Origin: a virus
Length of the DNA stretch: 48,552 nucleotides
Reading direction: 5' to 3' (one strand)
UHGV virus genome: UHGV-0142349
Every line of letters begins with the position of its first letter. Positions within the stretch are counted from its first letter, which is position 1. The position numbers and the translations under genes are program-made. The notes under the pieces were generated by a model that was not told the DNA's origin, made no database searches, and saw only the letters and a list, made by a program, of their open reading frames with translations. Below, piece by piece: positions 5,395 through 48,509 of the stretch.

Positions 5395-6018
5395 ATGACA
5401 AAACATCTTAATGTGGTTTCTTTACCACTTTCTGTGTTGATTGGTTATGAAAAGAACGCTCGCACACACTCCGTGGAGCAGGTAGATCAGATTGTTGCCA
5501 GCATACAGGAGTACGGATGGACTAATCCGATCCTGATAGACGAAAGCAACGTTGTAATTGCTGGTCATGGTCGAATTGCTGCGGCCACTCAGTTGGGGAT
5601 GGATGATGTTCCCTGCATTGTTCTGGAAGGGCTAACGGAGAATCAGAAGAAGGCATATCGTCTGGCCGACAACCGTATTCCGCTGAATGCTGGTTGGGAT
5701 GAAGAGTTGTTAAGCGCGGAGCTTGCAGATCTTGCGGCCGATGATTTTGCTCTGGACTCAATTGGTTTTACTCAGCGCGAACTGGATAACTTATTGAGTG
5801 CGGCGGTCTACGATGACACAGAAGGTATGGATATCCCATTTGAGAAGGATGAGGCCAAATCAGGCGTAAAAGTTCAGTACCTGTCATTTGGAGGTCATAA
5901 AATCCCGGCAACGGATGAGGAAGCGGATCGTTTTGACTGCGCGGTATCTCGTTATGTTGATGATAATGGCAGCTATATCGGATTTGTATCCGCATTGCTG
6001 GCAGGGGAGGTGTGCTGA
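5395..6018 (+). CDS. ParB-like nuclease domain protein (paralog 1)
   Basis: N-terminal ParB/Srx-like motifs (NARTHS.EQV, IAGHGRIAAA, KKAYRLADNR); paralogous to 8685..9275. Confidence 0.65.
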   Translation: MTKHLNVVSLPLSVLIGYEKNARTHSVEQVDQIVASIQEYGWTNPILIDESNVVIAGHGRIAAATQLGMDDVPCIVLEGLTENQKKAYRLADNRIPLNAGWDEELLSAELADLAADDFALDSIGFTQRELDNLLSAAVYDDTEGMDIPFEKDEAKSGVKVQYLSFGGHKIPATDEEADRFDCAVSRYVDDNGSYIGFVSALLAGEVC

Positions 6019-7391
6019 TGCTTCACCTGAATTACGACATAACGCACCTACGCGGCGCGGAATATAACCCGCGTTTTATCGGTGAGGATGATCTTGCGAG
6101 GCTGGCGGAAAGCGTCAGGGAGCTGGGGCTTGTGAAGCCATTGATAGTGCGCGGCGATTTGCTGGTGGCGGGACACCAAAGGACGAAGGCGCTACGTAAG
6201 TTGGGAATAACGCGTGCTGCGGTGTATGTGTTGCCCTGTGAAACGACGGTATACGACGAAGTACGGTTTAACCAACTGCATAACGGAACGGATTTTGACA
6301 GCGGAGATGAGCGTTGCAGGGTGTCCGGTCTGGAAGATAAGCATGGTTTTGTTCAGGTATCGGCAAGCCAGATCTCAGGCAATATGCGCGCGAAAATGGC
6401 ATATGTTCGAAAGAACATAGCGGAACTGGTTATCAAGTATGGTCCGTGGGGTGGTTGTGTTGCTACTCAGTCTGGCGAGGTTATTCACTGTGCTCAGTAT
6501 GCATTAGCAGCGAAGATGACGCGCACACCGCTAACGGTGTTTGTGATCCCTGATGTTGAGAAGGAAAAATACCAAAGTTATCTGAATAAAACTTATGGTG
6601 TATTTGAGTATTCTCATCTGGAGAAAACAACATACATCCAGACGTATGCGCAGCTTATGCGGTTGCGTAATGGTGGCAGCCTGAAATCAAACCTGTATGA
6701 GTCGTTGATCCTCCCGATCATTGCCAAGACGCCAAGAGGAATTGATTTTGGTTCGGGTCAGGGAGACTACGCGCGAATGCTCAGGGCAAAGGGATATAAC
6801 CTGCATGATCTTGAGCTTTTCCGCCGTAAGGGCGCTGGAAACACTCTGGATAGGACCGCAACAAACCGGATGATTGATACGCTGGTGGACGACTTAAAAA
6901 CGCGAGGGCGTTACGACTACGTGATTTGCGATAGCGTTTTGAACTCGGTCGATAGTGTCGAGGCTGAATGGTCCGTTCTGACGGTTCTGAAAGGGCTGTG
7001 TAAAGCTGGTGGGTCAATATTCTTTTCTGGCCGTAGCCGTGGAGAGCTGGAAACAGTCCTGAAGCAGACACAAGCGGCGAGTTCCAAAAGCCGGCTTTAT
7101 TTTATTGATCATAACGGTTTTACCGCGTTGTACCGGAAGGGGCACTGGTTTTACCAGAAGTTTCACTCTGATGAGGAAGTGAAGCAGTTGTGTCGTGTAC
7201 ATGGTTTCAGGATTAAGCGGTCAATATTCAACTGTAAGAGCTGGTATTTGCACGTCATTAACGATGATTCCCTTAGTTGGGCGAGTCTGGAGAAAGCTGT
7301 TCGTTTTGAGTTTGAGTTGCCGTTGCCTGGTGGTTCAACAATCGGACGATCTGATGATGTACTGGCGGCTTTCCGGCCGTTGATTAAGTAG
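6012..7391 (+). CDS. ParB-like N-terminal domain fused to class I SAM-dependent methyltransferase-like domain
   Basis: N-term LLVAGHQRTKALRKLG (ParB-like); C-term Rossmann motif I GIDFGSGQGDYA and DYVICDSVL acidic-loop motif. Confidence 0.6.
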   Translation: MLMLHLNYDITHLRGAEYNPRFIGEDDLARLAESVRELGLVKPLIVRGDLLVAGHQRTKALRKLGITRAAVYVLPCETTVYDEVRFNQLHNGTDFDSGDERCRVSGLEDKHGFVQVSASQISGNMRAKMAYVRKNIAELVIKYGPWGGCVATQSGEVIHCAQYALAAKMTRTPLTVFVIPDVEKEKYQSYLNKTYGVFEYSHLEKTTYIQTYAQLMRLRNGGSLKSNLYESLILPIIAKTPRGIDFGSGQGDYARMLRAKGYNLHDLELFRRKGAGNTLDRTATNRMIDTLVDDLKTRGRYDYVICDSVLNSVDSVEAEWSVLTVLKGLCKAGGSIFFSGRSRGELETVLKQTQAASSKSRLYFIDHNGFTALYRKGHWFYQKFHSDEEVKQLCRVHGFRIKRSIFNCKSWYLHVINDDSLSWASLEKAVRFEFELPLPGGSTIGRSDDVLAAFRPLIK

Positions 7392-7407: not shown

Positions 7408-8127
7408 GTGGCTGACAGAATTGAGATAAAGATGGATTTTTCTTCTCAGGATATTCAACGACAACTCCAGCGCCTTGAAGAACGCGAATTGCCGTTCGCA
7501 ATGGCGCTTGCGGCAACCAGAACGGCAAAGGCTTCTCAGGCTGCGATTAAGAATGAAATTAATCGGGTATTTGACAGGCCCACGCCGTGGATTCAGAACT
7601 CTACTTACGTTTTGGCCGCAAAGAAGAGTGATCCTACAGCCATTGTGTATGCTCGTGAATGGGGAGGAACGCCAGCCCCTGTAACGTTGACTCCGCAAAT
7701 CGAAGGTGGCCAACGACAGTACAAACGCTCAGAAGGGGCGCTAAGGGCTGGTGGATATTTGCCTAACGGCTGGCAGCTTGCTCCTGGTCCCGGCGCAAAG
7801 CTGGACAAATACGGGAATATTTCGCGGGGGCAATTACAGCAGGTCTTATCTGGCCTAAGAGTTCAGCGAGATGCGCATCAAAATCGCCGTCAGGGCAAGC
7901 CTACGGAGTTTTTTGTTGTTCGACCTGGTACAAGTAACCCGCTTCAACCAGGCGTCTGGCAGCGCGTTGGGCGGCGTCCTACGTTGATCCTTACGTTTAT
8001 CCAGCAACCTAACTATTCGCAGCGTCTTGATTGGCATGGCGTGGCGCTGCGTGCTGGTGAGGATGCGTTTGCTGATGAAGTCACAAAGGCTATTGATGAC
8101 ATTCTTTCTAAGACCTTCTCTCGTTAA
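7408..8127 (+). CDS. hypothetical protein
   Basis: 239 aa ORF; G/P/Q-rich; no family recognised. Confidence 0.45.
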   Translation: MADRIEIKMDFSSQDIQRQLQRLEERELPFAMALAATRTAKASQAAIKNEINRVFDRPTPWIQNSTYVLAAKKSDPTAIVYAREWGGTPAPVTLTPQIEGGQRQYKRSEGALRAGGYLPNGWQLAPGPGAKLDKYGNISRGQLQQVLSGLRVQRDAHQNRRQGKPTEFFVVRPGTSNPLQPGVWQRVGRRPTLILTFIQQPNYSQRLDWHGVALRAGEDAFADEVTKAIDDILSKTFSR

Positions 8128-8299
8128 TCATCGTGTGGTTGATGGTGTTGTTATGCAGAGTGTATTCACTGTGTTCTGTAGCGTCGCTCGCTGGCTGTCT
8201 GTGGGGGAGCACGAGCATCGTTTCATCGTCCGGCAGAATTGGGTCCTTCTGGCCAAAAGCGTTGGATGCGGGTCATTCGAACCCCGATGTTCGGCTAGC

Positions 8300-8680
8300 T
8301 AAACGTGAAAAAAGTTAGGTTAAAAGTTGCGGTAAAAGAAATTTACTCATCTCATTGAAAAATATCGGGAAAACGTGATTTTTTGCTGTATTTGTGCTGG
8401 TAAAAAGAAAGTAGAAAATTTTCTTTTAGATCATCAAGATACGCGCAGATCTTTAACCAATGTGATGTTGTTCTGATAAAAATCGTTATAAATCATGCAA
8501 ATACATCCAATCTTTTAACCAAAACACCATCTCAAGATCCTTTTTACTTATAAAAACTTAATAAAATCAGATGATTATGCTGGTTTGTGTGATTTTTTAT
8601 GAGTAAAAAGATCGTCATTTTTCTCTTTTAGTATCAATAAGTTAAACAGTTTTCTTTAACCTGTTGTGTTATGGCGGTTA
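8300..8680. promoter_or_regulatory. AT-rich non-coding region with direct repeats (candidate promoter / packaging cos-like region)
   Basis: About 380 bp without ORFs; imperfect direct repeats GTGATTTTTT..GTAAAAAG..TTCTTTTAG near 8384-8440 and 8588-8640; TCTTT(T)AACCAA repeated. Confidence 0.35.
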
Positions 8681-8684
8681 AAAA

Positions 8685-9275
8685 ATGGCTCTAAAAATCG
8701 AATATTTACCAGTCGGTAAGCTGCTCAGATACGCCAAAAATTCACGGACTCATTCAGATGAGCAAGTTGAACAGTTGGTGAACAGTATCCGTGAGTTCGG
8801 TTTCACTAATCCTGTGCTGATCGATGAAAAGAATGAACTGATTGCGGGGCATGGGCGGCTTGCAGCAGCCGAAATTCTGGAAATGGATAAAGTTCCAGCG
8901 ATTCGGTTGAGTAACCTTTCTGAAAAACAGAAGAAGGCTTACAGGATTGCAGATAACAAGCTGGCCTTAAATGCTGGCTGGGATATGCAGCTTCTGGCCG
9001 AAGAAGTCAAAGCGTTAATGGATGATGATTTTGATATTGATCTGCTTGGGTTTAATGATGCAGAGCTTGACGAAATGTTAAGCGATGAACAGCCGCAGGA
9101 AGAAGACGATAATTCTTCCCCTGTTGTTCAAATTAAGTACCTGGCTATTGATAAAGAACGTATTCCCGCGACGGATATGGAAATTGCATTGTTGCTGGAT
9201 GTTTATCGTCAGTACCACGACGCGCATGAAACGCATGAGGGATTTGTTCAGTATCTTGCTAATGGTTGCAAGTAA
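8685..9275 (+). CDS. ParB-like nuclease domain protein (paralog 2)
   Basis: NSRTHSDEQVEQLV, IAGHGRLAAA, KKAYRIADNKLALNAGWD; collinear with 5395..6018 product. Confidence 0.65.
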   Translation: MALKIEYLPVGKLLRYAKNSRTHSDEQVEQLVNSIREFGFTNPVLIDEKNELIAGHGRLAAAEILEMDKVPAIRLSNLSEKQKKAYRIADNKLALNAGWDMQLLAEEVKALMDDDFDIDLLGFNDAELDEMLSDEQPQEEDDNSSPVVQIKYLAIDKERIPATDMEIALLLDVYRQYHDAHETHEGFVQYLANGCK

Positions 9276-9826
9276 TGGCCATCGTCAGTAAGTCAGAGTT
9301 TGCCCGCCGAAAAGGTATTTCTCCGGCAATGGTTACGAAGCTCTGTCGTTCCGGTCGCATTCCAGTGCTGAAAAGCGGCAAGCTGGATTTTGATAAAGCT
9401 AGTGCGGCTTATGAAGCGAGCCGACAGGTTGGTCGTGAGGTATCTGCTGAAAATGGAAAAAGAGGGCATGGGATATCTTCGGAACAACCAGAGTTACCCG
9501 CTGATGATGCCGGATTAGCTGGTGGTACTTCCGGTGTTGCGGTGCAATTCAACAAGGCTAAGACCGCAGAAAAAATTTATCAGGCAAAGCTGAAACGCCT
9601 TGAATTTGAAGAAAAGGAAGGCTCTCTCATCGCTAAAGATGCGGTCAGGGATGATGCATTTCTGGCAGCTAATGAATTGCGTAGCCGCTTATTTAGTATT
9701 GCTCCAAGAGCAGCTCCCCGTTGTGAAGGCAAAACAGCCAGGGAGATCGAACGCATTATTGAAGACGAGATTAATTTTGCGCTTCAGGCGCTCCAGGAAT
9801 CCCGATTTATTAAGCAGGAAGAATAA
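9266..9826 (+). CDS. terminase small subunit (lambda Nu1-like)
   Basis: N-terminal HTH-like segment, directly upstream of gpA-like large terminase. Confidence 0.55.
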   Translation: MQVMAIVSKSEFARRKGISPAMVTKLCRSGRIPVLKSGKLDFDKASAAYEASRQVGREVSAENGKRGHGISSEQPELPADDAGLAGGTSGVAVQFNKAKTAEKIYQAKLKRLEFEEKEGSLIAKDAVRDDAFLAANELRSRLFSIAPRAAPRCEGKTAREIERIIEDEINFALQALQESRFIKQEE

Positions 9827-9831
9827 ACCTC

Positions 9832-11688
9832 ATGGGCGAAACAGTATGGAGCACCGCTTTTTTCCGTGCGCTTCGCCCTAAATCACGGCTAACTGTTTCC
9901 GAATGGGCTGATAAGTATCGTCATGTAGCGCCGGGAACGTCTCCAGAGCCAGGGCCGTGGCGTACAAGCCGAGTGCCATATTTGCGTGAACCAATGGATG
10001 TTATTGGTGACGCTGATACAGAAACAGTAGTGATGCAATGTAGCTCGCAAATTGGTAAATCCGAATTACAGCTAAATGTTATGGGTTACTTTGCAGATCA
10101 GGAGCCATCTCCTCAGTTGATGATTTATCCAACGGTAGAGGCGGCTGAGGCTTTTTCAAAAGAGCGTATTGATCCGACGTTCAAATATTCCCCTGGTTTG
10201 AAACACAAGCTGCATGAAGGGAAAGAGGGGCGCGGTGCAGCCAAAAAGTCCAGCACGACTATACGTATGAAGCATTACGCTGGTGGATATATAGCACTTG
10301 TTGGTGCTAATTCCCCAGCAGGTCTTGCATCCAGGCCAATTCGAATACTGTTAGCTGATGAGATTGATCGTTACGGTGTGACGCAGGAGGGCGACCCACT
10401 AAAACTAGGTATTCAGCGTACTACCAACTTTCATAATCGTAAGAAGGTTTTTGTTTCTACTCCTGTTTTGGAGGAAACGAGCAAAATCCACAAGTGGTTT
10501 AAGCTCTCCGATCAGCGTTACTACCATGTTCCTTGCCCATGTTGTGGCACCATGCAGGTGATGAAATGGTCGCAAGTCAGATGGGATAAGAGCGATTCAG
10601 GTGAGGCGTTACCGGAAACGGCCAGATATGAGTGCTGTGAGTGCGGCGGGATTATGCGCGGATCTGGTAAACCAGACGTTGATTGGTTGGCGAAGGGGGT
10701 ATGGATAGCTGAACATACTGGAGTTAAAGGTATTGTTGGTTTTCATATTAACAGTCTTTACTCCCCGTGGGTTGCATTGTCAGAGCTGGTTGAAGAATTT
10801 GCGGAAGCAACCAGAAACCGCGATAAAAATGGATTAATGGAGTTTATTAACCTTAAGCTGGGTGAGCCATGGAAAGAGGATGCTAAAGACGATATCGATC
10901 CTGAATACTTGTTGCAACGCAGAATAAGGTTTGAAGAGTTTTTACCAGATGATGTTTTATTGTTAAGTGCTGGTGTTGACGTACAGGACACGTATTTAGT
11001 TTGTGAATTGGTCGGTTGGGGAAAAGGTAAGGAGTCATGGGGGATAGAATATAAAATATTCCCAGGTGATCCCGCACAAGATGTTGTCTGGAAACAACTT
11101 GATGAATACTTACTCCGTAGCTGGTCATTCCGTGACGGTCGAAAATTACAGATTTCTTCCGTTTGTATTGACTCTGGTGGGCATTTTACGACAGAGGTAT
11201 ATCGCTTTACTAAGCCGAGAGAATCAAGGCGAATATACTCTATCAGGGGGCGTGGTGGGGTAGGTTTACCATTTATAGGAAAGCCAAGTAATAATAACCG
11301 TGTGGGTGCTATGTTGTTTAATTTGGGGGTTGATGATGGTAAAGGGACCATCATGGCAAGAATTAAACTACATGATCCTGGTCCTGGTTATATGCATTTC
11401 CCATTAGATTCTGACAGAGGATATGATACCGAATACTTTAAAGGATTATTATCAGAGAAGAAAATATTTGAATATAAAAATGGGCAGACAAAAGAAAAGT
11501 GGGTGAAAGTCTACGAGCGTAACGAGCCTCTTGATTGCCGTAACTATGCAACTGCCGCGATGGAAATTCTGAACCCTAATTTTAACTGGCTTGCCGAACA
11601 GGAAATGCGAGGTAATGTGTATGTGCAGAACTCGTCAGGTATACGTAGAAGACGCCGTAGAGTTATAAGTAAAGGCGTAACCATATAG
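9832..11688 (+). CDS. terminase large subunit (lambda gpA-like)
   Basis: 618 aa; N-terminal region resembles GpA terminases; position before gpW and portal. Confidence 0.85.
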   Translation: MGETVWSTAFFRALRPKSRLTVSEWADKYRHVAPGTSPEPGPWRTSRVPYLREPMDVIGDADTETVVMQCSSQIGKSELQLNVMGYFADQEPSPQLMIYPTVEAAEAFSKERIDPTFKYSPGLKHKLHEGKEGRGAAKKSSTTIRMKHYAGGYIALVGANSPAGLASRPIRILLADEIDRYGVTQEGDPLKLGIQRTTNFHNRKKVFVSTPVLEETSKIHKWFKLSDQRYYHVPCPCCGTMQVMKWSQVRWDKSDSGEALPETARYECCECGGIMRGSGKPDVDWLAKGVWIAEHTGVKGIVGFHINSLYSPWVALSELVEEFAEATRNRDKNGLMEFINLKLGEPWKEDAKDDIDPEYLLQRRIRFEEFLPDDVLLLSAGVDVQDTYLVCELVGWGKGKESWGIEYKIFPGDPAQDVVWKQLDEYLLRSWSFRDGRKLQISSVCIDSGGHFTTEVYRFTKPRESRRIYSIRGRGGVGLPFIGKPSNNNRVGAMLFNLGVDDGKGTIMARIKLHDPGPGYMHFPLDSDRGYDTEYFKGLLSEKKIFEYKNGQTKEKWVKVYERNEPLDCRNYATAAMEILNPNFNWLAEQEMRGNVYVQNSSGIRRRRRRVISKGVTI

Positions 11689-27104: not shown

Positions 27105-29483
27105 GTGAGTAAATTATTATTTACGATGACTGACGCCGGGCGTCAGGAGCTGGTTAATGCCAACAAAACAGGAACAAATAAAGTTGAGATTGTTTCTGTT
27201 GGTTTAGGTAGTAGATATTATGTCACGTCAACTTCACAAACAAATATAACAAACGAAATAAAACGACTTACCACAATAGGTGGCAAAGTTGTTTCCCCTG
27301 ATACAATTCATGTAACAGCGAAGGATGATAGTAAAGATGAGTATGTTGTCCATACAATAGGATTGTATACGAATAAGGGTACGTTGTTTGCTGTATACTC
27401 ACAAGAACAAGCAATAATAAATAAAGCATCATCTACTATCGCTTTAATATCAAGTGATATAGCAATTAAAACTCTTGATACTAAAAATATTACATTTGGT
27501 GATATTGAGTTTATTAATCCTCCCGCGACCGAAACTGTTGTTGGGGTGGCAAGATTTGCTAATGAACAAGAAATTGATGCAGGTACAGATGATTCCCTTG
27601 CTGTTTCAGCAAAACGGCTTAAGCAAGCCATTGTGAAACATGAGCAATCACGTAATCATCCTGATGCAACTTTAACCTCAAAAGGTTTTGTTCAACTTAG
27701 CAGCGCCACCAATAGCACGTCTGAAACGCTTGCTGCGACGCCTAAGGCTGTTAAGGCAGCATATGACCTGGCTAATGGCAAATACACCGCACAGGACGCT
27801 ACCACAGCGCGAAAAGGGATTGTTCAGCTCAGTAGTGCCACCAACAGCACGTCTGAAACGCTAGCAGCAACACCAAAGGCTGTTAAGGCAGCGTATGATC
27901 TTGCGGCCGGAAAGGCTCCGTCCAATCACACGCATTCGTGGGAGCAGATAACAAATGTGCCTGTAGCTTCACTGACTGTAAGGGGAATAACTCAGCTCAG
28001 TAGTGCCACCAACAGCACGTCTGAAACACTGGCCGCGACATCGAAAGCTGTAAAGGTGGTAATGGATGAAACGAACAAGAAAGCGCCCCTGAACAGTCCG
28101 GCGCTGACCGGAACACCAACAACACCAACTGCGCCAAAAGGTACTAACAATACTCAGATCGCAAGCACGGCTTATGTTATGGCTGCGATCGCTGCCCTCG
28201 TGGACTCGTCGCCTGACGCGCTGAATACGCTGAACGAGCTGGCTGCGGCGTTGGGCAACGACCCGAATTTTGCGACCACCATGACTAACGCGCTTGCGGG
28301 TAAGCAACCGAAAGATGCCACCCTGACGGCGCTGGCCGGGCTTGCTACTACGGCAGACAGGTTTCCGTATTTTACGGGGAATGATGTCGCCAGCCTGGCA
28401 ACTCTGACAAAAGTCGGGCGGGATATTCTTGCGAAATCGACCGTTGCCGCCGTTATCGAATACCTCGGTTTACAGGAAACGGTAAACAAGGCTGGTAACG
28501 CCGTGCAAAAGACAGGCGATACCTTGTCCGGTGGACTTACTTTTGAAAACGACTCAATCCTTGCCTGGATTCGGAATACTGACTGGGCAAAGATTGGATT
28601 TAAAAATGATGCCGACAGCGACACTGATTCATACATGTGGTTTGAAACAGGCGACAACGGCAATGAATATTTCAAATGGAGAAGCAAACAAAGCACCACA
28701 ACAAAAGACCTGATGAATCTTAAATGGGATGCTTTGTATGTTCTTGTCAATGCCATTGTAAATGGCGAAGTCATATCAAAATCAGCAAACGGCCTACGTA
28801 TTGCTTATGGTAATTACGGATTCTTTATTCGTAATGATGGTTCAAATACATACTTCATGTTGACAAACTCCGGTGACAACATGGGGACTTATAACGGATT
28901 AAGGCCATTATGGATTAATAACGCTACTGGCGCTGTTTCGATGGGGCGTGGCCTTAATGTTTCAGGGGAGACACTTTCAGACCGTTTTGCTATTAACAGC
29001 AGTAATGGTATGTGGATTCAGATGCGCGATAACAACGCTATCTTTGGGAAAAATATAGTTAACACTGATAGCGCTCAGGCGTTGCTTCGCCAGAATCACG
29101 CCGACCGAAAGTTCATGATAGGTGGACTGGGGAACAAGCAATTTGGCATCTACATGATTAATAACTCAAGGACAGCCAATGGCACCGATGGTCAGGCGTA
29201 CATGGATAATAACGGGAACTGGCTTTGCGGCTCGCAAGTTATTCCCGGAAACTATGGCAATTTTGACTCCAGATATGTGAAAGATGTTCGACTTGGTTCA
29301 CAGCAATATTATGGAGTGAACAACTGGCAAACATGGAATTTCCAGTGCCCGTCAGGTCATGTATTGTCTGGTATTAATGTTCAGGATACAGGGTCCAACT
29401 CTGCCGATAATATAGCGGGCGTTTATTACAGACCCGTTCAAAAGTATATAAATGGCACCTGGTATAATGTAGCGAGCGTTTAA
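27105..29483 (+). CDS. tail fiber protein (constant N-terminal part plus invertible C-terminal part)
   Basis: 792 aa; three tandem copies of [19 protein letters not shown] motif; crossover repeat at 28462..28490 inside the gene. Confidence 0.8.
27688..28065 (+). repeat. three ~80-bp direct repeats inside tail fiber gene
   Basis: Repeated nucleotide blocks at about 27688-27772, 27820-27900, 27985-28065. Confidence 0.7.
28462..28490. repeat. left inverted repeat (crossover site) of invertible segment
   Basis: ACCTCGGTTTACAGGAAACGGTAAACAAG; reverse complement matches 31505..31533 with 2 mismatches. Confidence 0.75.
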
Positions 29484-29484
29484 T

Positions 29485-30012
29485 ATGATGCACTTAAAGA
29501 ACATAAAAGCGGGTAACGCTAAAACACTGGAACAGTATGAGTTAACAAAGAAACACGGAGTTATCTGGCTTTACTCTGAGGACGGAAAAAACTGGTATGA
29601 GGAAGTGAAAAACTTTCAGTCAGACACAATAAAGATTGTTTACGATGCAAATAATATTATTGTCGCCATCACTAAAGATGCCTCCACGCTTAACCCTGAA
29701 GGTTTTAGCGTCGTTGAGGTTCCAGATATTACAGCCAACCGCCGCGCTGATGATTCAGGAAAGTGGATGTTTAAGGATGGAGCTGTAGTTAAACGGATTT
29801 ATACGGCAGACGAACAGCAACAACAAGCCGAATCACAAAAGGCCGCATTGCTTTCCGAAGCTGAATCAGTCATCCAGCCGCTGGAACGCGCTGTCAGGCT
29901 GAATATGGCAACAGACGAGGAACGCACACGACTGGAAACATGGGAACGCTACAGTGTTCTGGTCAGCCGTGTGGATACGGCAAATCCTGAATGGCCACAA
30001 AAGCCTGAGTAA
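29485..30012 (+). CDS. tail fiber assembly protein (current orientation)
   Basis: 175 aa; paralog of 30041..30574 on opposite strand. Confidence 0.7.
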
Positions 30013-30018
30013 AAATTA

Positions 30019-30036
30019 AGGCCCGATATCGGGCCT
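30019..30036. terminator. bidirectional hairpin between convergent tail fiber assembly genes
   Basis: aggcccgatatcgggcct perfect palindrome. Confidence 0.45.
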
Positions 30037-30040
30037 TCTC

Positions 30041-30574
30041 TCATTCTGGTTGTTCGGGAAACGTTACTGGCAGGCTGGAGGTGTCTGTGGATTCGACTTT
30101 CTGCGCGTAGAGCATCCACTCGGTTAATTTTTGTTTATTCTCGTCGGAAATGATGCCCAGCCGTAGCTGTGAGTCCCATAGCTGGGTTTTATCCCTGACA
30201 AGTTGCAACAGGCTTTGCTTTTCATTCTCTGCCTGCTGCCTCTGTTCCTCCTCGGTATAAGTTCGCTTTATCACTACGCCATCTTTGAACATCCATTTAC
30301 CCGAAATATCAGCCCGGCGATTTGCTGTAATATCAGGTAATTCAACGACGCTTGCGCCTTCTGGATTAATTGCTGAAACATCCTTTTCAATACAAATAAT
30401 AACGCCGTTGTGGTCATAGACCATTTTCAACGTATCAGGCTGAAAGTTCTTTTGTTCCTCATACCAGTTTTCCCCATCCTCTGTATAAAGCCATTTGATG
30501 TTAAATTGTTTCGTTAGCTGGTATTGCTCTTTTGTTTTAGGGTTGCCAGCAGTAATATTTTTTAAGTGCATCAT
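30041..30574 (-). CDS. tail fiber assembly protein (alternative)
   Basis: 177 aa, same N-terminal MMHLKNI.AGN motif as 29485..30012 product. Confidence 0.7.
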   Translation of the reverse strand: MMHLKNITAGNPKTKEQYQLTKQFNIKWLYTEDGENWYEEQKNFQPDTLKMVYDHNGVIICIEKDVSAINPEGASVVELPDITANRRADISGKWMFKDGVVIKRTYTEEEQRQQAENEKQSLLQLVRDKTQLWDSQLRLGIISDENKQKLTEWMLYAQKVESTDTSSLPVTFPEQPE

Positions 30575-30576
30575 AA

Positions 30577-31524
30577 TTAAATACTCCCCGCGTTATACCA
30601 CGTTCCATTAATGCAATACTGAATTGGCCTTGCCTGAGTTGTATCAATTAATTCATCACGGTTTCCGTTAACTGACCCCGTAACGACATAACCTGACCTG
30701 TCAGACCAGCCGGGACCATTCCATGTCTGAACAGATGACAGACCGCCAAGACGAATACCTGTAATAAACCTTGAGTTACATTCTGCCTGCGTATATGCAC
30801 CAACATCTCCCGCTGATGGCTTACGTGTTGTGGTGTAAATTTCTGACCAGTCAGCTTCGAATCCGTAACCATCACGCGCTGAACGATAAAAAATACCGCC
30901 GTTCCTGTAATTCACACGGAACTGTACGGCAGGGCAACTCCCCGTATTCATATTGAAGTGGAGGATTAATGTCGATGCGCCACCAATATTTGCGTTATAG
31001 ACCCCGCTATTCCAGTTCCAGCCAACAGCTTTATCATTTCCGACAGTGCTTCCTGTTTGCCCTAAAGCAAATGCAGGCTGCTGGTTTTTCGTGTTGTAGT
31101 CTCGTCGCCAGCCAGGAGCATAAGCATCACCATGATTAATATAAGTGAATTGAGCGTTAGTGATTCCGCCACCGCTGGAAGTGCTCGGGGTGGTTACACG
31201 GATGGTCATGGCTCCTTTATTACCCATAACCTCAATAACGCAACCTGCAAGATGAATAGTTCCACAGCCAGTATCGGTAATAATTTTATTATTGCCGTAT
31301 GACCATGAACATTTGCACATCCAGTATGGGTGATTGAATGCCCCTTGAGAATCAAGCCATTCAATCAATTGTGCCGTTGTCCAGTTCCCTGCCCCTGTAC
31401 TAATAGCACTGTGAAAAGCACGACATGCACCAATATTTTTTGTGAAGGTATCTTTTCCAGGAATATCTGCGCCGTTCTGGTTTTTCTGTAATGCGCCAGA
31501 AGCCTTGTTTATCGTTTCCTGCAA
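30577..31524 (-). CDS. alternative tail fiber C-terminal segment
   Basis: N-terminus (M)QETINKASG parallels LQETVNKAG at crossover in the expressed fiber; likely continues into the right repeat with no own start. Confidence 0.65.
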   Translation of the reverse strand: MQETINKASGALQKNQNGADIPGKDTFTKNIGACRAFHSAISTGAGNWTTAQLIEWLDSQGAFNHPYWMCKCSWSYGNNKIITDTGCGTIHLAGCVIEVMGNKGAMTIRVTTPSTSSGGGITNAQFTYINHGDAYAPGWRRDYNTKNQQPAFALGQTGSTVGNDKAVGWNWNSGVYNANIGGASTLILHFNMNTGSCPAVQFRVNYRNGGIFYRSARDGYGFEADWSEIYTTTRKPSAGDVGAYTQAECNSRFITGIRLGGLSSVQTWNGPGWSDRSGYVVTGSVNGNRDELIDTTQARPIQYCINGTWYNAGSI

Positions 31525-31533
31525 ACCGAGGTT
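31505..31533. repeat. right inverted repeat (crossover site) of invertible segment
   Basis: CTTGTTTATCGTTTCCTGCAAACCGAGGT. Confidence 0.75.
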
Positions 31534-31605
31534 TTTGCGAATTGCCTCTGTGTCGTCTGAACGATATTTTTTCCCGCTTTTAGCAACAATCGCGGTTTAG
31601 AAAGT

Positions 31606-32160
31606 ATGCAATATGGTTATGCGAGGGTGTCAACTTTTGACCAGAATTTGGAATTACAACTGGAGGCGCTCAGGAGTTCAGGATGTGACCGGATTTTTGA
31701 AGATAAAATATCCGGTGCTAAATCAAAACGACCAGGGCTTGATAAGCTACTGAAGGTGTTACGGCCGGGCGATACGGTTATTGTCTGGAAGCTGGATCGA
31801 ATGGGGCGTTCTCTGATTCATCTTGTTGATTTACTTAACCATTTTTTATCAAACAACATTGAGTTTATTTCGATTACGGAAGGGATAAAAATTAGCACTT
31901 CAATTGGCCGCTTTGCCTACACGATGCTGAGTGCAGTCGCAGAGATGGAGCGGGAAAATATGATTGAAAGAACGCGTGCAGGATTGGCGGTGGCAAGGGC
32001 TAATGGCAGGATAGGAGGACGCCGCTCAAAATTGGCCCCAGAGCAATGGGAACAGATCGGAAGGCTTATTGCGAATGGTGTTTCACGTAAGCGGATAGCG
32101 ATTATCTTCGATGTTACCTTATCCACGCTTTACCGCAGGTTTCCGGCTGGGAATCATTGA
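31606..32160 (+). CDS. serine recombinase, DNA invertase (Gin/Hin/Pin/Cin family)
   Basis: N-terminal YARVSTFDQNLELQ with catalytic Ser; small size with C-terminal HTH; adjacent to invertible segment. Confidence 0.85.
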   Translation: MQYGYARVSTFDQNLELQLEALRSSGCDRIFEDKISGAKSKRPGLDKLLKVLRPGDTVIVWKLDRMGRSLIHLVDLLNHFLSNNIEFISITEGIKISTSIGRFAYTMLSAVAEMERENMIERTRAGLAVARANGRIGGRRSKLAPEQWEQIGRLIANGVSRKRIAIIFDVTLSTLYRRFPAGNH

Positions 32161-32341: not shown

Positions 32342-33319
32342 ATGGAAACAAAAAGCCCGCAGATAAATCTGCGGGCTTCTTGCGACATCCACGGAAAACC
32401 AACAATTAACCATGGGCGCCTCGACAACTCCCATTATACGTTGGTTTTCCGTGGACGCAAGAGCGAACATATGGATAGACCAATGCCGTCTCTACGTTCA
32501 GCTTACGTTTGTAATTTGTCGCCGGAGTTCCAGCCTCCAAAGCACCATACGCACAAGCTGCCGCTGGTGTTATCTGATGCTTTACAGCGCATTAATGGTC
32601 GTGATCTTACGTGTGAGGTTGCGTTCTACGTTAATCAACCGTCAGAGCGGAAACGCCGGATAAACGAGCATCGTCGTCGGGCGATTAATGCTGTGATTGC
32701 TGCGATTTTGCACCATGTAAACATCATTTCTAAGCGGGTTCTGGCCAGTGCTGAGGCGTTGGCTGATTTTTGCGGTCTGTCTACCGTATCCGAAGCTGGG
32801 AACAAGTCTATAACGCGCTGTACAAGGGCGTTGTCGCAACTGAAAGCGTTAGGTTTTATTGATTATGAACGTCGCTGGGATCGGGTGAATAAACAGTATT
32901 GGCCAGCGAAAATAGAGATTCGTGATCAACTGCTGGAAACCGTTGGTATTACTGAACAAGCATGGAGACGTGCGGTTAGCCAGAAACTTAATTACTTCAA
33001 TGCGAAGAATAGCGAACGGCTTAAAAAAGCGATAACGGAGGCTGATTATAAGCGTATTGTTATTCAGGAGCAGATGGAGAATGTATGGCGTCAGAGGAAG
33101 ACGGCCAGAGAGATAAAGGCAAAACAGAAAGCAGCGGAGAGAGCTGCGCGTCTTGTTCGGGAAAAGGGAGAGGCCGAACTTCGTCATCAAATCACTAGAG
33201 AGGTTAGCCAGGAATTTGCTGATGGCATGTATCCTGGAGCTGACCTTGCATATTTACGATCCCTCGTTGAGCAGCGTTATAACAGGTTAAGAAAGACTTG
33301 GAAATCACTCCAACATTAA
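32342..33319 (+). CDS. repA: plasmid replication initiator RepA (IncFII RepA1-like)
   Basis: Segment SITRCTRALSQLKALGFIDYE resembles IncFII RepA1; basic C-terminus; real start may be internal ATG 32471 downstream of leader stem-loops. Confidence 0.65.
   Translation: METKSPQINLRASCDIHGKPTINHGRLDNSHYTLVFRGRKSEHMDRPMPSLRSAYVCNLSPEFQPPKHHTHKLPLVLSDALQRINGRDLTCEVAFYVNQPSERKRRINEHRRRAINAVIAAILHHVNIISKRVLASAEALADFCGLSTVSEAGNKSITRCTRALSQLKALGFIDYERRWDRVNKQYWPAKIEIRDQLLETVGITEQAWRRAVSQKLNYFNAKNSERLKKAITEADYKRIVIQEQMENVWRQRKTAREIKAKQKAAERAARLVREKGEAELRHQITREVSQEFADGMYPGADLAYLRSLVEQRYNRLRKTWKSLQH
32346..32455 (-). ncRNA. putative CopA-like antisense RNA in repA leader
   Basis: On minus strand: 15-bp-stem hairpin (32389..32454) then hairpin 32355..32376 followed by TTTTTGTTT. 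Confidence 0.35.
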
Positions 33320-33439
33320 CCCACCTGAATGATGAATCCGGTTTTACCGGAGGATTATCTACGTCGCAATAAAATATCTGTTCAAAAAACAATCTAAATT
33401 AATTTTCTCTAAACCTGAACACAGCAAAAATATCGCCTT

Positions 33440-33600
33440 TACAGGCATCGGCTAATAAAGTTATCCACAGTTTTGATATGTATATGCAAATGGTTTTTTA
33501 TAATAGATGCACTAAACAAATAAATGCAAAATCACTTTCTTTTATTAAGACTTTCTTTATTTAACTTACGCAGGCTTTGCCTGTGAATATGTTCGCCCTT
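33440..33600. promoter_or_regulatory. putative replication origin (DnaA box TTATCCACA at 33461..33469 plus AT-rich tract)
   Basis: Perfect DnaA box about 140 bp downstream of repA stop, then about 120 bp AT-rich DNA. Confidence 0.5.
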
Positions 33601-40266: not shown

Positions 40267-40515
40267 TTACTTCTGGTTGTATTGAGCCTTGAGTAACTCA
40301 AAAGATTTTGTCAGCACTTCTTTCAATGACATATCCATTGAGCTGGCGAACGTTTTGTACTCGCGTTTAAATTCAGGGTCGACGTTAAACGCCATTTGTG
40401 CCCCACCTGATTTGGTTCTGGCTGGCGTTTCAGTCGGGTCGAAAACCTGCGGTTGTTCGATCGATGGCGGTACGCCTTTGCTGTTCTTCTTTGGTGGTTT
40501 TGATGGTGCGGCCAT
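40267..40515 (-). CDS. partition protein, ParG-like (ribbon-helix-helix centromere-binding)
   Basis: 82 aa, basic flexible N-terminus, directly downstream of ParA-like ATPase gene (type Ib layout). Confidence 0.5.
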   Translation of the reverse strand: MAAPSKPPKKNSKGVPPSIEQPQVFDPTETPARTKSGGAQMAFNVDPEFKREYKTFASSMDMSLKEVLTKSFELLKAQYNQK

Positions 40516-40527
40516 GTGTATCCCCTC

Positions 40528-40563
40528 TTATATAAATCTATAAAACTATAATTATATATTACG
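40528..40563. repeat. AT-rich near-palindromic motif copy
   Basis: TTATATAAATCTATAAAACTATAATTATATATTAC. Confidence 0.5.
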
Positions 40564-41212
40564 CGGCAGTAGTCAGAGCCTCAAGCTGGTTGATAATCCC
40601 CTGAATAACGTCGTCTGCCTTTTTGCGTGGCGCAACGTATGAGCATTCAATGAGGCTTAAGCCCTTATCCTGAGCTTTGCTCAGAGCTGGCTTGTGGGGA
40701 ATGTACTTATCGACAACAAAGTATGGCGTATTAGCCAGGTACTCTTGGGCTTCAATGTAGTCGGCTTCGTTTTCAGCCGCGCCTGAGAACACCATGCAAA
40801 TTTTCTTGATTGGCACACCCTTTTTAACGATGCCATGAGCTGTGTTAACGGTGGTTTCCAGGTCATCGGTAGAGAATCTGGTTGGCAAAATAACCATATC
40901 CAGAAATTCAGAGAGCTTCGGTACTGATTCAGATGCGTAGGCACCGCCATCGACGATAACCAGGTCGTATACTTCTGATTCGATGATTTTCTGGACTTGT
41001 GATGGCGTGCCGCACGGCTGCGCCGCGATTGCAGGTTCGATATTGTTGGCCATTCTGCGTTGTACCCAACGCGTTACCGTTCCGTTAAGCACATCCATAT
41101 CGATCAGGCATACATTCCAGCCGGCCTTTGCATAAGCAACTGCTAAAGCACGGGCAATTGTTGATTTGGTTACGCCGCCTTTTCCGTTGAAAATACCTAC
41201 AGAGATAGTCAT
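40559..41212 (-). CDS. partition ATPase ParA (small ParA/ParF-like, Walker type)
   Basis: Deviant Walker A GKGGVTKST; start at ATG 41212 (SD GGAG upstream) rather than track start 41227. Confidence 0.7.
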   Translation of the reverse strand: MTISVGIFNGKGGVTKSTIARALAVAYAKAGWNVCLIDMDVLNGTVTRWVQRRMANNIEPAIAAQPCGTPSQVQKIIESEVYDLVIVDGGAYASESVPKLSEFLDMVILPTRFSTDDLETTVNTAHGIVKKGVPIKKICMVFSGAAENEADYIEAQEYLANTPYFVVDKYIPHKPALSKAQDKGLSLIECSYVAPRKKADDVIQGIINQLEALTTAA

Positions 41213-41235
41213 TTGTCGAGACTCCATGTGTTTGG

Positions 41236-48331: not shown

Positions 48332-48509
48332 GGCAAAGATGCTGATAGCAAAGCCCGGGCAGCGTATCCGTATCTCAAATCGGCTTGTTATTTACTATAG
48401 ATATCTGGGTTTTAGGGGGTGTTCCTCTATTCGTTTTTACGGTGTCTGGCGGAGCAGAAGCGCGGCGCAAAACCGCTGGAAAAACCACTTGCGCACTAAA
48501 GGAGAGTGA
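48318..48509 (+). CDS. hypothetical small basic protein
   Basis: ATG 48318 overlapping previous stop; 63 aa. Confidence 0.25.
   Translation: MKNRKAKMLIAKPGQRIRISNRLVIYYRYLGFRGCSSIRFYGVWRSRSAAQNRWKNHLRTKGE

Follow-up and report, generated by a model that had tools for sequence, protein, structure and literature searches.

The window analysed here is the whole of the virus genome UHGV-0142349 (48,552 nucleotides, one strand), and the subject of this report is the non-coding DNA upstream of its terminase genes, a candidate packaging site (cos) of a phage-plasmid. A first-pass annotation had flagged positions 8300–8680 as an AT-rich gap with direct repeats. The gap is real and larger than was claimed: non-coding DNA extends from 8128 to 8684, between the stop codon (8127) of a gene for a 239-amino-acid protein and the ATG (8685) of a ParB-like gene. 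The GC content is 0.27–0.30 over 8300–8700 compared with approximately 0.45–0.55 in the flanks. No credible open reading frame (ORF) was found between 8127 and 8685, and a search of the gap for conserved small ORFs returned none. Two ORFs across 8133–8318 were rejected as spurious, since only their cos core is conserved in a Salmonella relative. Rfam gave no match in the gap; the sole hit in 7900–9000 was a far-sub-threshold RNase P at 8873–8946, within the ParB-like gene. The features of the locus are listed below; offsets are relative to 8271, where the cohesive end begins.

8241..8247, plus strand: cosQ-like heptamer GGGTCCT, −30 to −24 from the first cohesive-end base
8271..8282, plus strand: putative cosN, 12-nt cohesive end GGTCATTCGAAC, with predicted nicks at 8270/8271 (top strand) and 8282/8283 (bottom strand)
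8283..8305, plus strand: conserved spacer CCCGA..N8..CTAGC between nick site and first repeat, in the position of the lambda I2 segment
8300..8684, no strand: AT-rich, A-tract-phased cosB-like region (the flagged gap), probably curved, as judged from GC content, phasing and repeats
8685..9275, plus strand: ParB/Srx N-terminal-domain protein of 196 aa between array and terS (Pfam ParB_N, E = 4e-8; phrog_620)
9275..9826, plus strand: small terminase subunit (TerS) of 183 aa (phrog_57, E = 7e-42); start at ATG 9275 (TTG 9266 in the ORF list)
9832..11688, plus strand: large terminase subunit (TerL) of the gpA family (Pfam GpA_ATPase 7e-76, GpA_nuclease 1e-84)

The window as a whole is an approximately 48.5-kb myovirus-type phage-plasmid of Escherichia coli, judging by its gene content. 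Its packaging and head genes encode the small terminase subunit (phrog_57), the gpA-family large subunit, DUF6148, a lambda-family portal, a protease, a decoration protein and a capsid protein; these are accompanied by genes for a contractile tail and baseplate, by a Mu/P1-like invertible tail-fibre segment with a Hin-type invertase, and by an IncFII RepA (32342–33319), a ParA (40559–41227, minus strand) and a CI-like repressor. Of 5426 complete E. coli genomes, 72 (approximately 1.3%) contain the non-coding DNA at 8128–8684, with an identity of 97–100%. All but one of these copies (71/72) are plasmid-borne, on plasmids nearly all of approximately 47–50 kb, and the carriers include the plasmid of the quality-control strain Seattle 1946 / ATCC 25922. 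The plaque-forming Yersinia phages vB_YpM_39, _41 and _44 are 99% identical to the window. The element was therefore classed as a myovirus-type phage-plasmid. None of the ten groups of the phage-plasmid typing paper fits it in both size and morphology. The phage family is uncharacterised; the kind of packaging element discussed below, a lambda-type cos, is well known.

For comparison we used a syntenic plasmid of Salmonella Weltevreden (TerL 88% identical) and approximately 20 related viral contigs, which are only about 65–70% identical to the window across the gap. More distant relatives with TerL identities of 50–77% included the contigs L008, L009, L029, L035, L036 and L038. A scan of genome contigs with TerL yielded only three distant loci; it was of use since L009 and L010 begin at cos. 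L036 and L010 are one sequence (IMGVR_UViG_3300045988_118791 = CAAGIL010000179.1).

The ends of ten independent assemblies located the nick site. They comprise three near-identical Yersinia phages, five phages of Vibrio and two contigs from metagenomes, and each breaks at 0, 10, 11 or 12 nt of the 12-mer GGTCATTCGAAC or its homologue. The records of vB_YpM_41 and vB_YpM_39 start at window position 8271 and end at 8270, and for vB_YpM_44 the start is at 8283 and the end at 8282; the record starts are exactly 12 nt apart, and the bases between them are GGTCATTCGAAC. Linear records of Vibrio phages break in the homologous 12-mer GGTGCTCGCGAC at 0 (PVP-XSN, R20L), 10 (R19R) or 11 (X29), and the XM1 record carries the homologous 12-mer at both ends plus a terminal extra A. 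Defined ends have been reported for X29 (PMC5690320). Contig L009 begins with GGTTGCGCGAAC/CCC, that is, at GGT (here and below, a slash marks an edge of the cohesive end). In contig L036/L010 a 13-nt tail of Illumina adapter, GCTCTTCCGATCT, comes first and abuts GGTAGGCGCGGC/CCC; the tail is an assembly artefact that marks a physical DNA end.

Conservation converges on the same position. A block of approximately 50 bp around the 12-mer is about 96% identical in Salmonella-type relatives, compared with a background of about 65%, and is still recognisable in relatives with only 50–60% TerL identity. Distant relatives (TerL 50–77%) keep the pattern ...GCG/GGTnnnnnnnRC/CCCRR..CTAG upstream of a homologous terS. 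The core GGGTCATTCG(A/T)ACCC is invariant, except for its A/T position, in an alignment of 17 gap sequences, and one further sequence alters the next base. In the spacer that follows, CCCG and CTAG recur in almost every relative with a TerL identity of 50% or more (CCCA/CCAG in L009 and L008). Assembly ends and conservation together establish, if indirectly, the position of the end and its length of 12 nt, and cos very probably lies at 8241–8282. The earlier proposal of a cos site was thus right in kind, for there is a gpA-family terminase, a lambda-style cos and a gap in the position of cosB. It missed the nick site, which is some 20–30 bases outside the flagged 8300–8680: both the 12-nt end and the cosQ-like heptamer are located in GC-rich DNA to the left of that interval. 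The proposal had also drawn on lambda-like systems, in which cos lies just upstream of the small terminase gene; the gap is indeed on the terminase-gene side of the nick site, with a ParB/Srx-like gene between it and the small terminase gene.

The 12-mer is retained both at left ends (records starting with GGT) and at right ends (vB_YpM_44, and XM1 with its additional A). Because end-repair fills 5′ overhangs, whereas 3′ overhangs would be trimmed, this retention suggests, by the logic of library preparation, that the cohesive end would be 5′-protruding as in lambda. The XM1 ends fit a fill-in of a 5′ overhang with A-tailing.

Searches with the 16-mer GGTCATTCGAACCCCG gave no further ends. In viral contigs all 29 matches were internal, in prophage or plasmid assemblies. 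In a metagenome scan, 116 of 120 were unrelated matches in soil and marine contigs, and these many exact matches are taken to be due to chance; the other four belong to the family but have cos internal or a contig end 13 nt beyond the match, and are uninformative on ends. GenBank records handle the cohesive end inconsistently: it is duplicated with an extra A in PP580404 (XM1), split after 11 nt in KJ572845.2/NC_024369.2 (X29) and after 10 nt in PP839371 (R19R), and in the stretches at the start and end of the XM1, X29 and R19R records the feature tables list no cos. The papers on XM1 and X29 give no description of a cos site or repeats, the paper on the Yersinia phage HQ103 yielded nothing on termini in a search for packaging terms, and no paper was found for vB_YpM_39, _41 or _44. 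A separate observation is that the reverse complement of the cosN core (CGGGGTTCGAATGACCCGC; 8268–8286) slightly resembles a tRNA T-arm (GGTTCGAAT).

Upstream of the nick site, the heptamer GGGTCCT is identical in sequence and offset to lambda bp 48473–48479 (NC_001416, ends aligned with those of the window), which we take to be the cosQ mapped by Wieczorek and Feiss (2001). The two sequences align as follows.

lambda: ...AC GGGTCCT TTCCGGTGATCCGACAGGTTACG/GGGCGGCGACCT/CGCGGG
window: ...TT GGGTCCT TCTGGCCAAAAGCGTTGGATGCG/GGTCATTCGAAC/CCCGATG

According to PMC4669245, cosQ is a 7-bp site of high conservation that termination requires. Of the relatives, the Salmonella plasmid, XM1 (a Vibrio phage) and contig L038 have the exact heptamer at the same offset; that of Rostov7/X29 is displaced by 1 nt, and a degenerate form is found in L029, L008 and L035. 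Lambda has heptamer and spacing in common with elements whose terminase shows only 28% identity to gpA, in hosts ranging from Escherichia to Vibrio and in contigs of gut metagenomes, which argues that cosQ may be read by the conserved core of gpA-type large subunits.

The resemblance to lambda extends beyond cosQ. Alike are the 12-nt stagger, the CG before the top-strand nick, the offset of GGGTCCT, the gpA-family large subunit, the start of the repeats at about +48 on the terminase-gene side and an N-terminal winged helix-turn-helix (HTH) in the small subunit. The gene order in the window is also lambda-like, with cos, terS, terL, a small head-tail connector gene and a lambda-type portal. The identity between TerL and lambda gpA is low, at 28% in a tblastn alignment that covers 92% of the length. 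Further differences are that the virion is that of a myovirus and the prophage a plasmid, that a ParB/Srx-like gene lies between the cosB-like region and terS, and that the R-like motif, GGTWAAAAG, is unrelated to the R sites of lambda, which are of the CGTTTCC type. The array in the window comprises about nine sites over approximately 370 bp, whereas lambda has three over 120 bp; lambda cosB holds the TerS sites R3, R2 and R1 and a site for integration host factor (IHF) (PMC4669245).

Phage N15, with its 'simple cosB' (PMC4669245), shows that cosB architecture varies within this kind. It shares with the window a plasmid prophage, a gpA-type terminase and a conserved cosQ; its cohesive end differs from that of lambda at only two of 12 positions, and its cosB is shorter, whereas that of the window is longer.

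The direct repeats of the gap were confirmed at coordinates slightly different from those first given, and their enrichment is far beyond chance. The repeats are as follows.

8375 and 8589: GTGATTTTTT
8400 and 8603: GTAAAAAGA
8419 and 8619: TTTTCT(C)TTTTAG
8450 and 8653 (TCTTTAACC) and 8511 (TCTTTTAACC): TCTTT(T)AACC family

Two segments of approximately 85 bp, 8375–8461 and 8589–8661, gave a local alignment score of 25, compared with 10.0 ± 1.7 (maximum 16) for shuffled sequences. The core GGTWAAA occurs seven times in 8300–8684, where 0.25 occurrences are expected from dinucleotide shuffles (none of 2000 reached seven); in the whole window there are only 25, with no other cluster. This motif was picked after inspection of the sequence, and was replicated independently in relatives. 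Tandem Repeats Finder detected a period of 12 at 8310–8338. Finally, AAA/TTT tracts recur in 8300–8684 with a periodicity of 10.75 bp, which is stronger here than in every other 385-bp stretch of the window; none of 1000 shuffles reached it. The phasing of the A-tracts suggests that the gap would be intrinsically curved, and the curvature may be a stand-in for the IHF bending of lambda.

These data also bear on the view that only cosQ and cosN are functional and that the gap is a fast-evolving spacer, its repeats stemming from local duplication and low complexity. The imperfect internal duplication of about 85 bp, the background identity to Salmonella of only about 65% and a tolerated deletion of 90 bp (see below) would all fit such a spacer. 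We nevertheless consider it very improbable: the motif enrichment is far above dinucleotide-matched chance, the A-tract phasing is the strongest in the window, islands of 100% identity coincide with the R-like sites, and site offsets are conserved in L029 while the motif is replaced. The individual sites and associated elements of the array are listed below.

8316..8340, plus strand: first R-like pair, GGTTAAAAG (+48) and GGTAAAAG (+61); identical in the Salmonella group
8399..8408, plus strand: R-like site GGTAAAAAGA (+129); kept at +130 in Salmonella and in L029 (as GGTTAACAA)
8450..8458, minus strand: R-like site TCTTTAACC (+182); offset +183/+182 kept in Salmonella and L029
8511..8520, minus strand: R-like site TCTTTTAACC (+244); L029 has TTTGTTAACC at the aligned position
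8539..8547, minus strand: R-like site CCTTTTTAC, reverse complement GTAAAAAGG (+270); AGATCCTTTTTA unchanged in the main Salmonella group
8602..8611, plus strand: R-like site AGTAAAAAGA (+333); GTAAAAAGA invariant in all Salmonella-type sequences, +333 in both lineages
8653..8661, minus strand: R-like site TCTTTAACC (+385); offset +386/+387 kept in Salmonella and L029
8676..8684, plus strand: R-like site GGTTAAAAA (+406), overlapping the ribosome-binding region of the ParB-like gene; GGTGAAAAA in the Salmonella group
8632..8644, plus strand: exact match TATCAATAAGTTA (+362) to the IHF consensus WATCAANNNNTTR, the sole match in the gap
8409..8498, no strand: segment of 90 bp absent from the plaque-forming vB_YpM_44; its loss removes one reverse-oriented site

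In the Salmonella group, sites were found at +48, +62, +130, +183(−), +319(−), +333 and +386(−). Contig L029, in which the motif is GGTTAACAA/TTGTTAACC, has them at +48, +63, +130, +182(−), +257(−), +311, +324(−) and +387(−) and at three more positions; of 13 GTTAAC in its 9.8 kb, 11 fall in the gap. In place of the first pair, L029 has GGTTAACAA (+48, +63), XM1 has GTTAACAC (+50, +67) and L036 has GGTAACT (+48, +65). XM1 contains five direct GTTAACA(C/G)T repeats from +50 to +126, and five of the seven GTTAAC in the 3.3 kb of XM1 that were examined lie in the first 130 bp; L036 contains three GGTAACT repeats from +48 to +75, which account for all three of its GGTAAC. The first site thus lies at +46 to +50 in all lineages, at +48 here and within this range in four others. 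Lambda R3 lies at about the same distance. In lambda, how far R3 lies from cosN is critical (PMC9026076). Site positions persist while the motif changes from GGTWAAAAG to GTTAAC or GGTAAC, which fits a specific binder that would have evolved with its sites. Like the end itself, the cosQ-like element, the clustering of the repeats and their conserved positions are shown indirectly, by assembly ends and conservation.

Another close comparison is with the Vibrio myophages X29, phi 2, Rostov 7, XM1, PVP-XSN, R19R and R20L, which have been proposed as 'Weiviridae' (PMC11432961). They have a TerL 63–66% identical to that of the window, the order cos, parB-like, terS, terL, the homologous 12-mer GGTGCTC(G/T)CGAC, a cosQ-like GGGTCCT and GTTAAC-type repeats from +50. 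They differ in having only five direct repeats, in a single orientation, in approximately 140 bp, and for X29 integrases have been reported instead of plasmid functions.

Iteron origins and centromeres, too, are typically AT-rich and curved and carry short direct and inverted repeats, and the element is a plasmid that encodes ParB-domain proteins. The array could accordingly be a replication origin, with iterons and a DNA-unwinding element, or a centromere (parS), situated next to cos by coincidence. This is hardly likely. The IncFII RepA gene is 24 kb away and has its own AT-rich stretch downstream (33351–33550, GC 0.28), and ParA with a small partner gene (40267–41227, minus strand) also lies away from the array, the two modules being 24–32 kb distant. 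Around the rep and par genes there is no cluster of the motif, the ParB-like proteins have neither the HTH nor the C-terminal domains of partition ParBs, and similar repeats are found beside cosN in X29 and XM1, Vibrio phages that are not plasmids (interval of only approximately 140 bp), and in metagenomic relatives. With RepA and ParA located elsewhere, and with neither an iteron origin nor a ParABS system recognisable at the array, the oriV/parS reading was rejected. The AT-rich stretch after RepA is itself probably the plasmid origin, and ParA with the small downstream ORF is probably a partition module.

We considered which protein might bind the array. An AlphaFold model of TerS (mean pLDDT, the model's confidence score, 77; approximately 85 for residues 1–50) has an N-terminal winged HTH. 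The best Foldseek matches of this N-terminus were BldC, a mycobacteriophage Xis, an excisionase and the DNA-binding domain of lambda gpNu1 (1J9I), the last with a probability of 0.97, a TM-score (target) of 0.61 and a root-mean-square deviation of 2.2 Å over 54 columns. From the model, TerS would be a structural analogue or distant relative of gpNu1, not a family member by sequence. BldC and Xis bind AT-rich repeat arrays head-to-tail and bend DNA. They are transcription and recombination factors, not terminase subunits, and what they have in common with TerS is the fold only, with 12–20% identity.

The second candidate is the ParB/Srx-like protein. Its PDB and NCBIfam matches span only residues ~5–92, which resemble the N-terminal module of ParB-domain methyltransferases. 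The order cos, parB-like, terS, terL is common to the window, L029 and the Vibrio phages and hints at a packaging-linked role. In L035 and L036, however, no ParB-like gene is present in the DNA examined, yet short repeats lie between cosN and terS, and the Vibrio phages have a ParB-like gene but a short array. The homologous TerS is therefore the common factor and the likely binder. The window encodes three paralogous ParB/Srx N-domain proteins (5395–6018, 6012–7391 and 8685–9275), of which one carries a fused methyltransferase domain; the matches of all three are confined to the N-terminal approximately 150 aa of ParB-domain Type II methyltransferases.

Taken together, 8241–8684 is probably a lambda-type cos, composed of cosQ, cosN and cosB, of a phage-plasmid of approximately 48 kb with an unusually long cosB-like array. 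For the gap itself, the balance tips towards a TerS-binding cosB, as far as the repeats and their conservation allow a judgement. According to this model, the gpA-family large terminase would nick the strands 12 nt apart, at 8270/8271 and 8282/8283, and so produce virion DNA with a 5′-GGTCATTCGAAC end. GGGTCCT, 30 nt upstream, would serve as a termination signal of the cosQ type where the preceding genome ends. The AT-rich gap would form the cosB-type half, curved and carrying about nine GGTWAAAAG-like sites, the first three forward from +48 and the later ones mostly reversed. Winged-helix N-terminal domains of TerS would bind the array sites and thereby anchor the large subunit at the nick site, and packaging would run rightwards into the ParB-like, terS and terL genes. 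In this scheme we infer the 5′ polarity, TerS as the binder, the curvature and the direction of packaging.

Several observations weigh against the assignment to a lambda-type cos. The cohesive end matches that of lambda at only three of 12 positions, and the base pair after the 12-mer is CC in the window and CG in lambda; membership in the lambda-like cohesive-end group (lambda, 434, phi80, 21, N15 and gifsy-1; PMC4669245) was ruled out by the three shared positions. The ends of this exact element are deduced from assembly boundaries, and their 5′ polarity from library-preparation logic; moreover, the Yersinia records bear the label 'circular', and where they start could in principle be an editorial choice. 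TerS gave no Pfam Phage_Nu1 hit and no significant sequence-level PDB hit, and its Foldseek E-values are weak (0.35–0.8) because the matching domain is small. A comparison of the TerS recognition helix with the motif changes revealed no clean co-variation, and does not settle whether TerS or the ParB-like protein is the binder. No IHF site was found between the first R-like sites, where lambda has one in I1, the only consensus in the gap being that at +362. IHF matches number five in the window compared with 3.6 expected by chance, and the one in the gap is kept in L031/L025 and not in the main Salmonella group. Furthermore, 90 bp of the array are dispensable: since the plaque-forming vB_YpM_44 lacks 8409–8498, the array is partly redundant. 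Finally, with about 370 bp and nine sites the array is three times as long as the 120-bp cosB of lambda and the intervals of about 100–140 bp in Vibrio and metagenomic relatives, so that much of it may serve something else.

An extra function of the distal array is accordingly a serious residual rival. Here, cosQ and cosN would be as described, and most of the array (approximately 8400–8684) would be the regulatory region of a parB-like/terS/terL operon; its possible binders would be the ParB/Srx-like protein, a late-gene regulator, or a nucleoid protein such as H-NS that silences the packaging genes in the plasmid state. AT-rich curved DNA is a typical H-NS target. The array is about three times as long as its counterparts in Vibrio (approximately 140 bp, five sites) and in metagenomic relatives (approximately 100–170 bp), its distal two-thirds occur only in the Escherichia/Salmonella/L029 lineage and are mostly inverted, and the last site overlaps the ribosome-binding site of the ParB-like gene, which adjoins the array in three lineages; the 90 bp dispensable for plaque formation point the same way. 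On the other hand, the promoter region that had been offered as an alternative to cos found no support, with no sigma-70-like sites and no terminators in 7900–9000 where 2.2 and 1.0, respectively, are expected. A single motif family is also shared by the proximal (+48, +61) and distal sites, the repeats persist in L035 and L036 next to terS, and the ParB-like protein consists of the ParB N-domain only, with no recognisable HTH. We therefore regard a mainly regulatory array as unlikely. Still less probable is a variant in which the array is a nucleoprotein scaffold specific to the plasmid-prophage lineage, with the ParB/Srx-like protein either as a third packaging factor (a nuclease or a nucleotide-dependent clamp) or as a switch that keeps cos and the packaging operon inert in the plasmid state.

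Three further observations concern other parts of the window. Positions 1 to approximately 110 are 94–99% identical to a short segment that occurs in P7, in Stx2 phages and in further lambdoid phages, where its annotation is EaA or hypothetical; this is a mosaic joint to unrelated phages. A tRNA-Met gene (anticodon CAT) is located at 2425–2500, and the same tRNA is annotated in the Yersinia phage records; the mechanically called ORF 2299–2742 that encloses it is for this reason probably not a gene. The tail-fibre region (27105–32160) shares 90–95% identity with the S/U segments that undergo inversion in Mu, D108 and P1 and adjoins the Hin-type invertase gene (31606–32160), which suggests host-range switching by inversion of the segment.

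For a common and uncharacterised family of E. coli and Salmonella phage-plasmids, these results define a genome start, predict a cohesive end and offer a packaging signal that can be tested. They may be used to correct annotation, to judge whether such plasmids can be transduced and to build cosmid-like vectors. Within the lambda type of cos, the element stands out by an unusually long cosB-like array and by the ParB/Srx-like gene that follows it. The turnover of the motif at fixed positions provides a natural series for the evolution of packaging specificity.

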